A stretch of 20,562 bases of DNA from Waddliaceae bacterium (GTDB lineage Bacteria; Chlamydiota; Chlamydiia; Chlamydiales; SLOH01), in contig JBBDJA010000019.1 in NCBI GenBank assembly GCA_040880105.1, positions 1-20,562 of the forward strand, written 5' to 3'. Shown here piece after piece: positions 15,246 through 16,583 of this stretch (position 1 is the stretch's first letter; each line of letters starts with the position of its first letter). The notes under the pieces were generated by a model. It was given only the letters and a program-made list of their open reading frames with translations. It did no database searches and was not told the DNA's origin. Made by a program: the position numbers and the translations under genes.

Positions 15246-16583
15246 ATGGACTTAAACGCACGGCGCACAGCCGCTCATTTTCTAGCTTACTCACTGAGTC
15301 AACTTTTTCCCGAAACAAAAGTTCTGGACTCAGGCGTCAATCACCTCGGATTTTTTTGCACATTTTCTTGTAAAGGAGGAGTTGAAGAGATTCACTTTCC
15401 TGTCATCGAAGAAAAAATGTATGAACCAAAAGAGATTCGCCAATTTGAAATGGTGTACAATAACTGTTTGGATTTCTTGCGAGATCAAGGAGAGAAATTC
15501 CTCATTTCGCGCATTCCGCACACACAGACGGTAACTCTTGTTCAAATCCATCACTTTTTTGATCTTTCAGAAGGAGAGTTGCTTGAGGAGATGCCGGCAT
15601 TTTCCCTTCAGAGATTAGAGAAAACAGATGACCAAGTCTATACAATCTCGGGCTTTGCCGCAACAAGTAAGCATGAGCTAAAACAATTTTTAAAGCTTTG
15701 GCGGAAGTGGAAAAAAAACGATCCGATTCAAATGATGAGTCAGCTTGAGCTTATGAAATTTGATGGAGTGCGGCAGATATCGTATCCGAAAGGGGAGCTT
15801 TTAAAATCGTTACTTATCTCTCTTTGGGAGAAAAAGACCCAGGTAGAAAAAAATCATGTGATGGGAGACGGTGTACCAGACGGTACAGATTTTGGGTTTT
15901 GGCGTGAAGAAAGGGGAGATAGGTGGCATGAAGAGATCGGTTTTCTTAATCCACCATACCAAACAAGAGACTCAATAATTCTACAATCATCTGCTGAATC
16001 GGTGATTTCTTTCTTGCAATTGATTAATGAAATGTATAATATATTTAACTGCGAGCTCTCTTATTATTTGGTATCTAAACGGTCCAAGAAAAAGATTGCT
16101 CTAGATAAATGGAATCAAAAGCTGGTTCCCGGAGCAAAGATCTTAGGCTGTGTGACAGATTCATTGGGAAGGGAATGGTCCCTATCTGCAATAGAAGCCG
16201 AAGAGAGCAATCGAGTCCGATGCTCTCTATTTGTTTGCTTGGAACGTTTGATTGCATTTCTTCTTTCGCAGAATGAGGGATGGTTGCCACTTGTAATTGC
16301 CCCTGTGCAGATGAGGGTAATACCTGTAGATAAGCAGGCAAAGAAAAAAGCGTATGAACTTAAGTCTCAGCTTCCTCAGCTTCGTATTGAAGTAGATGAG
16401 CAGTCTTGTGAGTTGCAACAAAAAGTGTCACAAGCGAGAATAAGTCGAATTCCCTATTTAGTGATAATAGGGAAAAGTGAATTGGAATCGGGTTGCCTAA
16501 CTATCAGCTCTTTTGGACAAGAAAAACGAGAGCTGGTATTTGAACAGCTATTAAAAGAGGTAAACGAACAACTTGAGAATTAA
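15246..16583 (+). CDS. Degenerate threonyl-tRNA synthetase-like protein (ThrRS paralogue, probably inactive)
   Basis: Colinear remnants of the ThrRS editing domain (RRTAAHFLA...LFPE), YPKG, DSLGREW, LERLIAFLL...GWLPL.IAPVQ..IPV and the anticodon-binding domain (IPYLVIIG.SE). About 445 aa, located immediately upstream of infC. Start is ATG 15246 or TTG 15240. Confidence 0.85.
   Translation: MDLNARRTAAHFLAYSLSQLFPETKVLDSGVNHLGFFCTFSCKGGVEEIHFPVIEEKMYEPKEIRQFEMVYNNCLDFLRDQGEKFLISRIPHTQTVTLVQIHHFFDLSEGELLEEMPAFSLQRLEKTDDQVYTISGFAATSKHELKQFLKLWRKWKKNDPIQMMSQLELMKFDGVRQISYPKGELLKSLLISLWEKKTQVEKNHVMGDGVPDGTDFGFWREERGDRWHEEIGFLNPPYQTRDSIILQSSAESVISFLQLINEMYNIFNCELSYYLVSKRSKKKIALDKWNQKLVPGAKILGCVTDSLGREWSLSAIEAEESNRVRCSLFVCLERLIAFLLSQNEGWLPLVIAPVQMRVIPVDKQAKKKAYELKSQLPQLRIEVDEQSCELQQKVSQARISRIPYLVIIGKSELESGCLTISSFGQEKRELVFEQLLKEVNEQLEN

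Follow-up and report, generated by a model that had tools for sequence, protein, structure and literature searches.

The window analysed here, a 20,562-nucleotide stretch of DNA from a Waddliaceae bacterium, carries between tRNA-Val(GAC) and infC a gene related to threonyl-tRNA synthetase (ThrRS). We refer to this gene and its relatives as the pseudo-ThrRS family, X (Table 1). The first-pass annotation of this DNA had described an uninterrupted frame of about 445 codons, and the frame is indeed complete; as many stop-free codons would occur by chance with a probability of 2.5e-14 at the local base composition. A second possible start codon, TTG, lies at 15240. Predicted promoter-like and terminator-like sites bound the unit, within which X would be cotranscribed with IF3, L35 and L20; the names rpmI and rplT are presumed from sequence and position and not from a family scan. 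Four promoter-like sites occur in the region, compared with 5.2 in shuffled sequences, and it is the position of the listed site that speaks for it. An Rfam scan of positions 14800-17800 returned no known leader RNA, the tRNA being the only match above gathering score.

Table 1. Features of the tRNA-Val(GAC) to pheS region in the window.
Feature	Position	Strand	Remarks
Sigma-70-type promoter-like site, TTGAAA-17-TAGAAT	15118..15146	+	10/12 matches; 15 nt 5' of the tRNA
tRNA-Val(GAC)	15161..15236	+	ends 9 nt 5' of the X start codon
Pseudo-ThrRS gene (X)	15246..16583	+	ATG 15246 to TAA 16583; 445 aa; no internal stop
N2 (editing-fold) domain and linker helix	15246..15716	+	~aa 1-157; editing residues degraded; kept in 97/97 orthologues
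Class II catalytic-fold remnant, shrunken	15717..16301	+	~aa 158-352; without Zn triad; motif 1 largely deleted
HGTP anticodon-binding domain	16308..16568	+	aa 355-441; Pfam; less than half filled in 35/97 orthologues
infC (IF3)	16573..17079	+	TTG start; 11-nt overlap with X stop
rpmI (L35)	17090..17287	+	name from sequence and position
rplT (L20)	17301..17657	+	name from sequence and position
Intrinsic-terminator-like hairpin with T run	17673..17704	+	ends the unit, 5' of pheS
pheS	17713-18744		3' of the terminator-like hairpin

As judged from its predicted structure, window X is a member of the ThrRS structural family, with N2, class II core and HGTP anticodon fold in colinear order. The superposition on E. 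coli ThrRS that had been proposed as a check was made with a confident AlphaFold model (127 orthologues; pLDDT 93.3, pTM 0.89) and gave a Z score of 22.5 against residues 68-634 of 1qf6, with 436 aligned residues and an rmsd of 6.5. Foldseek likewise returned ThrRS as the best fold match, hhalign aligned X to ThrRS over 515 columns with a probability of 100, and the top solved relatives are the S. aureus and E. coli enzymes. Against the TIGR00418 profile the protein reaches 117 bits, below the active-ThrRS cut-off of 384, and HGTP_anticodon is the sole Pfam domain above its cut-off. The estimated deficit of about 200 residues is close to the actual one, as window X is 192 aa shorter than the 637-aa ThrRS of its own genome. 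Its pI is about 6, the same as that of the active enzyme, with no added positive charge.

At the residue level, we use E. coli numbers taken from the 1qf6 alignment and then carried over to the family alignments, and the residues are taken as those that serve in ThrRS for binding Zn and ATP, editing and anticodon recognition. None of the Zn triad is left in window X: C334 is deleted together with the KPMNCP segment, H385 is replaced by I and H511 by R. The first-pass annotation had recognized this loss but misplaced one motif, HRA aligning to RCS and not to VRC. Similarly, the motif 2 and motif 3 arginines are retained as it proposed (R363 and R520), except that the equivalent of R363 is R223, the last arginine of FWREER rather than that of FWREE; both corrections leave the reading of window X unchanged. 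R363 and R520 are also the only ones kept of the five ATP residues R363, R375, F379, Q479 and R520, with R375>N and Q479>S among the substitutions. The reported degradation of the editing site is borne out by H73>R, K156>L, C182>S and H186>L next to unchanged H77 and D180, and the TGS domain is absent. At the anticodon positions R583 and R609 have both become serine and E600 is kept. This loss had been noted correctly for window X, but it does not extend to the family: of the 67 members that have a residue at this position, 61 retain R609, and by alignment the window copy is an exception.

The extent of the loss was assessed in an alignment of 97 X proteins defined by their slot and 28 active enzymes, from which three fragments, eight exact duplicates and one canonical row were dropped; some of rows L157-L170 carry extra N-terminal residues, with the key columns unaffected. 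Not one of the 97 has two or more of C334, H385 and H511, versus all three in 28/28 active enzymes. (A Zn count on 260 further proteins is circular for C334, the group being defined by the absence of that motif, and was not used.) The ATP residues are as sparse, with R363 in 10, R375 in 6, F379 in 12 and Q479 in 2 members; R520 persists in 75, and R363, R375 and R520 occur together in one. The nucleotide-binding role that had been suggested is weak in view of these counts for R363, R375 and Q479. No substitute residues are conserved at the lost catalytic columns, and 2 of 30 X orthologues pass the TIGR00418 cut-off. Judged from the lost catalytic residues, X is catalytically dead. At the editing site H73 is found in 8, H77 in 5, C182 in 37, H186 in 23 and D180 in 64 of the 97, position 156 is K or R in 43, and no member has more than four of the six residues. 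TGS is missing from all 97; because many of the closest active enzymes are also devoid of it, its absence may be inherited.

What remains is distributed unevenly. X proteins range from 317 to 610 aa, a series that marks N2 and the linker as the part guarded by selection: in every one of the 97 members N2 is filled to 82% or more, and of the 43 columns with conservation of at least 70%, 24 fall within it. The motif-1 segment is filled to 57% in the window copy (family median 66%), and the W206 hairpin, which presumably contacts tRNA, is a gap in 64 of the 97. Most conserved columns are common to active ThrRS and look structural. Others are better conserved in X than in the active enzymes (M69 in 93 of the 97, K146 in 91, S255 in 85, K150 in 83); M69, A87, K150, S255 and A337 are conserved in X and seldom found in active enzymes, where K146 too is far less conserved. 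A single-sequence fold of one short member of 324 aa gave a pLDDT of 38.6.

Orthologues upstream of infC, which the first-pass annotation proposed to survey, are found phylum-wide in the same slot. At least 207 of 301 Chlamydiota genomes have two or more ThrRS-like matches to the family profile; the search, at E 1e-25, undercounts X, as 8 of 30 rechecked single-match genomes had a diverged X before infC. The best 29 X loci all lie directly 5' of infC, with tRNA-Val visible in 26 and the other three cut by contig ends. An independent scan by the tRNA end yielded 119 stretches, 80 with long flanks and mostly titled as Chlamydiae, of which 77 reach infC; 65 of these contain X (62 intact, 3 broken) and 12 have tRNA-Val directly before infC. 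The arrangement tRNA-Val(GAC)-X-infC-rpmI-rplT is thus a shared slot across Chlamydiota. Stops lie inside 7 of the 150 matches listed. A family of 1.0-1.4 Mb genomes, which we take to be probably Chlamydiaceae, partly from its nusB-infC order (our f4), has a single ThrRS-like match in 29/29 scored genomes, and in the five loci checked (L247-L251) neither X nor the tRNA was found within 1.5 kb 5' of infC. In these five nusB is divergent from infC. Losses of X are also scattered through other families, and in lineages devoid of X infC lies 28-319 nt 3' of the tRNA. As a gene linked to translation, X distinguishes many environmental chlamydiae from the small-genome family.

Some X-less slots between tRNA-Val and infC hold unrelated frames: one of 375 aa with a GxSxGG hydrolase-like motif (L256), one of 240 aa with a hydrophobic hairpin (L263) and one of 175 aa on the opposite strand (L267). 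Eight loci labelled Bacteroidetes or Verrucomicrobia (L040, L042, L045, L061, L062, L074, L090, L114) share the tRNA end and gene order of the chlamydiae, X being present in most, and probably belong to Chlamydiae whose labels are outdated or mistaken. Database names for X also vary, from 'threonine--tRNA ligase' (Neochlamydia) through 'His/Gly/Thr/Pro-type tRNA ligase C-terminal domain-containing protein' (Protochlamydia, Rhabdochlamydia) to 'hypothetical protein' for the Atlas clusters that hold it; cultured amoeba symbionts thus carry X as a threonine-tRNA ligase, an annotation that is corrected here.

The relatives of window X are under purifying selection. Their dN/dS is 0.085-0.224 in 14 same-genus pairs with dS below 1 (NG86; the pairs are not independent), as compared with 0.028-0.080 for thrS in 12 of those pairs. 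The decaying pseudogene that the first-pass annotation had held out as an alternative, with frameshifted orthologues and dN/dS near 1, is not what the 62 intact loci of 65 and these ratios describe, and its view that the protein has been kept by selection stands. Window X itself is the longest branch in the tree, with a best relative at about 32% identity; having no close relative, its own selection is inferred from the open frame.

The position of the gene bears on how it may be translated. The start codon lies a median of 11 nt 3' of the tRNA, within 31 nt in 56/62 loci and at 0 nt in five, and no SD-like motif precedes it in any of the 62. Because the start sits against the tRNA 3' end without such a motif, initiation after tRNA processing would be near-leaderless, as the sequences suggest. 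Leaderless-type initiation is policed by IF3. A translation start inside the tRNA was rejected by eye from the tRNA-to-start gaps in all three frames. Downstream, infC mostly starts at TTG.

Published RNA-seq tables indicate that X is transcribed in two species. In Protochlamydia, pc0701 ('thrS_1') adjoins infC and is constitutive with a log2 RPKM of 14.5-15.6, next to 11.4-12.1 for infC and 8.9-10.3 for thrS_2 (Data Set S1 of PMC5451489); its read counts may be inflated by tRNA-linked reads. In Waddlia, wcw_0913, listed as 'hypothetical' with COG0441 and located before infC, has a logCPM of 11.7 over 1.5 kb, with thrS at 9.8 and infC at 12.2 (Table S1 of PMC7760296). In the elementary-body proteome of the Protochlamydia study pc0701 is marked as not detected; thrS_2, infC, rplT and pheS were detected, and rpmI, trpS, argS and metG are likewise marked as undetected (PMC5451489). 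Plentiful X RNA together with scarce X protein would fit the data given in these sources.

Threonylation had been assigned to another gene, and a second, canonical thrS is indeed present: contig C32 of the same genome carries a complete copy with all motifs (694 bits). The opposite outcome, conserved Zn ligands in the sole thrS of the genome, does not apply. A working thrS accompanies X in 30/30 X-bearing genomes tested; two incomplete assemblies with X (G187, G248) yielded none, and a third (G185) yielded a broken contig-end piece. The editing site of the working enzyme is intact in 8/8 chlamydial rows. In the surroundings of the working gene, parA directly follows thrS in 31/31 loci (own contig C32, loci L002 and L003, and loci L177-L206), a CT583-family (UPF0137) gene is also downstream in 29/31, and neither adjoins thrS in any of 80 loci outside Chlamydiae. 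Homologues of these parA and UPF0137/CT583 genes lie on chlamydial plasmids. One working-type ThrRS, at L159 (G025), has KPMSC instead of KPMNC and forms the deepest branch among the sampled chlamydial working copies.

How the two copies came about was addressed with three trees, in which X and the working chlamydial thrS each form a fully supported group, and the two groups are not sisters. Approximately unbiased (AU) tests against their sisterhood yielded p 0.058 when the first outgroups were used, which did not reject chlamydial duplication, and p 0.017 when closer ones were used; long branches can bias both. The term 'paralogue' of the first-pass annotation, read as a chlamydial duplication, thus gives way to native and incoming copies, which the trees favour. 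For seven X proteins that have eroded little, higher scores are reached with non-chlamydial ThrRSs than with any of 37 chlamydial ThrRSs (e.g. 491 vs 358 bits), where the non-chlamydial comparison set consists of the best hits to one X protein. The nearest active subtype was represented by 80 non-chlamydial metagenome loci: thrS is followed by infC in 33/70 and preceded by tRNA-Val(GAC) in 13/57, and the complete order tRNA-Val(GAC)-thrS-infC is found in 11/47. Because active thrS sits in this slot outside Chlamydiae too, the slot is an old, widespread arrangement, as the first-pass annotation had assumed when calling it ancestral. X is probably the native chlamydial thrS and the working thrS the incomer. 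The conserved chromosomal parA has been argued to be plasmid-derived in the chlamydial ancestor, 700 My to 1 Gy ago (PMC7846284). We infer that the parA next to thrS is this same gene, and the working thrS may have arrived together with it, an idea based on adjacency, which does not prove it. A tie of X to tRNA-Val, as a Zn-less valine-accepting enzyme, was rejected with its ATP site gone; the tRNA moreover stays by infC where X is missing and precedes active thrS outside Chlamydiae.

Among known systems, X is closest to bacterial ThrRS (TIGR00418; E. coli 1qf6, S. aureus 1nyq), which shares its N2-catalytic-anticodon order, is its best fold match and occupies the same thrS-infC-rpmI-rplT-pheS slot; unlike these enzymes, X has no TGS domain, Zn triad or conserved ATP arginines, and it shows a degraded editing site and large deletions. 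It has the features of an inactive synthetase-like protein, with catalytic residues lost, a working synthetase elsewhere in the genome and purifying selection in relatives. HisZ, SLIMP and PolG2 are also dead synthetase scaffolds kept beside a working enzyme, the first two according to published accounts, and PolG2 chains match the window X model at Z ~19.5. These three have other parent synthetases, whereas X stayed in the slot of its parent gene. MRPL39 (mL39) of the animal mitoribosome is described as a non-catalytic derivative of the N-terminal part of ThrRS that was recruited to the translation machinery (PMC1950548). X differs from it in being bacterial and in having a catalytic-fold remnant and often an anticodon domain. 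Dead scaffolds have repeatedly become new machines, as in HisZ, PolG2 and MRPL39, and a dead X in a ribosomal operon beside a working copy points to a non-enzymatic job in translation.

The best explanation we can offer would begin in the chlamydial ancestor, where aminoacylation passed to a second thrS of foreign type and the native one remained at its original place between tRNA-Val(GAC) and infC. The displaced X would have lost its Zn, ATP and editing chemistry and been kept as a folded, non-catalytic protein, with an accessory and dispensable role in translation carried by N2 and the linker helix. Like the ThrRS-derived MRPL39, it would be a stoichiometric binder of RNA or the ribosome. 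Translated from the IF3/L35/L20 transcript, it would probably be present in few copies because its start codon abuts the tRNA 3' end without a Shine-Dalgarno site. We tentatively favour, at somewhat less than even confidence, such an accessory protein of low abundance that has no catalytic activity and associates with RNA or the ribosome; the neutral pI, the gap at the W206 hairpin, the frequent loss and the non-detection in the one published proteome all count against it. A more specific version is rather unlikely: that X became a chlamydia-specific ribosome-associated or RNA-binding factor after plasmid-linked displacement of thrS and was later lost in the small-genome, Chlamydiaceae-type lineage. 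In that version the target of N2 may be the 50S particle, IF3-dependent initiation or the tRNA-led operon of X itself, and X would be a bacterial parallel to MRPL39.

An unlikely alternative, and the one that survives best, is a role in cis or very slow decay, in which reading X delivers ribosomes to the overlapping non-AUG start of infC and selection on amino acids merely maintains a product that folds and does no harm. The stop codon of X reaches into the infC start region in 28 of 54 locatable cases (11 nt in the window), and erosion from 610 to 317 aa, many losses, a product undetected in the proteome cited above and conserved columns that are mostly structural-looking and shared with active ThrRS would all follow. 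Against it stand a dN/dS of about 0.15 across the whole frame, conserved positions that only X has, X-less lineages that manage with infC 28-319 nt from the tRNA, and deletions that spare N2 in every member, for which a mere spacer would have no need.

Lower still we place an inactive partner subunit that heterodimerizes with the working ThrRS and tunes or stabilizes it, which we consider improbable. The class IIa dimer is built by the motif-1 segment and the anticodon domain. In X the first is little more than half filled in the window and the second is gone in 35 of the 97 members, although the W-x-P-K-G signature of the motif-1 helix is conserved (G183 in 92/97); the working thrS also persists in lineages devoid of X. 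Anabaena ThrRS paralogues do heterodimerize, as reported in the survey of these duplicated enzymes (PMC4787780). Just as improbable, or slightly more so, is a role for the N2 pocket as a trans-editing deacylase or in binding the 3' end of aminoacyl-tRNA, in the manner of AlaX or archaeal ThrRS-ed. N2 is lost in no member and surpasses the other parts in conservation, and D180 and a basic residue at position 156 are the commonest survivors of the site; but the editing His and Cys are not conserved, at most four of six residues are ever present and the working ThrRS has an intact editing site of its own. Crenarchaeal ThrRS-ed (PRK14938) and AlaX share with X a stand-alone, ThrRS-related make-up devoid of synthetic activity, yet the PRK14938 match of window X covers the anticodon domain only, at 45 bits and far below the cut-off of 362. 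A residual ATP-dependent ligase, whether a second ThrRS or a repurposed adenylating enzyme, is very improbable: the retained R520, the two copies above the TIGR00418 cut-off, the several X named threonine-tRNA ligase and the two incomplete assemblies in which no working copy was found are outweighed by a Zn triad missing throughout, ATP arginines that coincide in a single member and catalytic columns devoid of conserved substitutes.

Two ThrRS-family genes per genome are also known from Anabaena (T1/T2), vertebrates (TARSL2) and Bacillus, whose thrS and thrZ are duplicated ThrRSs; these copies still aminoacylate, unlike X, which by its sequence cannot bind Zn. In the titles and abstracts of the open-access literature no description of the X family was found. 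The term 'chlamyd' is absent from the main text of two surveys and one review on duplicated synthetases (PMC9437257, PMC4787780, PMC5388404), while their supplements, such as the ThrRS tree of PMC4787780, could include X. Inactive synthetase-like proteins are already known; a ThrRS-derived, phylum-wide one in the slot of its parent appears to be new. X offers a testable case of a displaced essential gene that may be kept for a side job.

Elsewhere in the window, two further frames gave no Pfam match: an acidic one of 648 aa at 3587-5533 (-), searched at E 0.1, and a hydrophobic one of 187 aa at 8815-9378 (+), 3' of fmt. Positions 9550-12968 (-) hold one run of MYG1 exonuclease-family, HIT-like, isochorismatase-like and HEAT-repeat genes, the MYG1 and HEAT names coming from Pfam and the HIT-like and isochorismatase-like ones being presumed from sequence.
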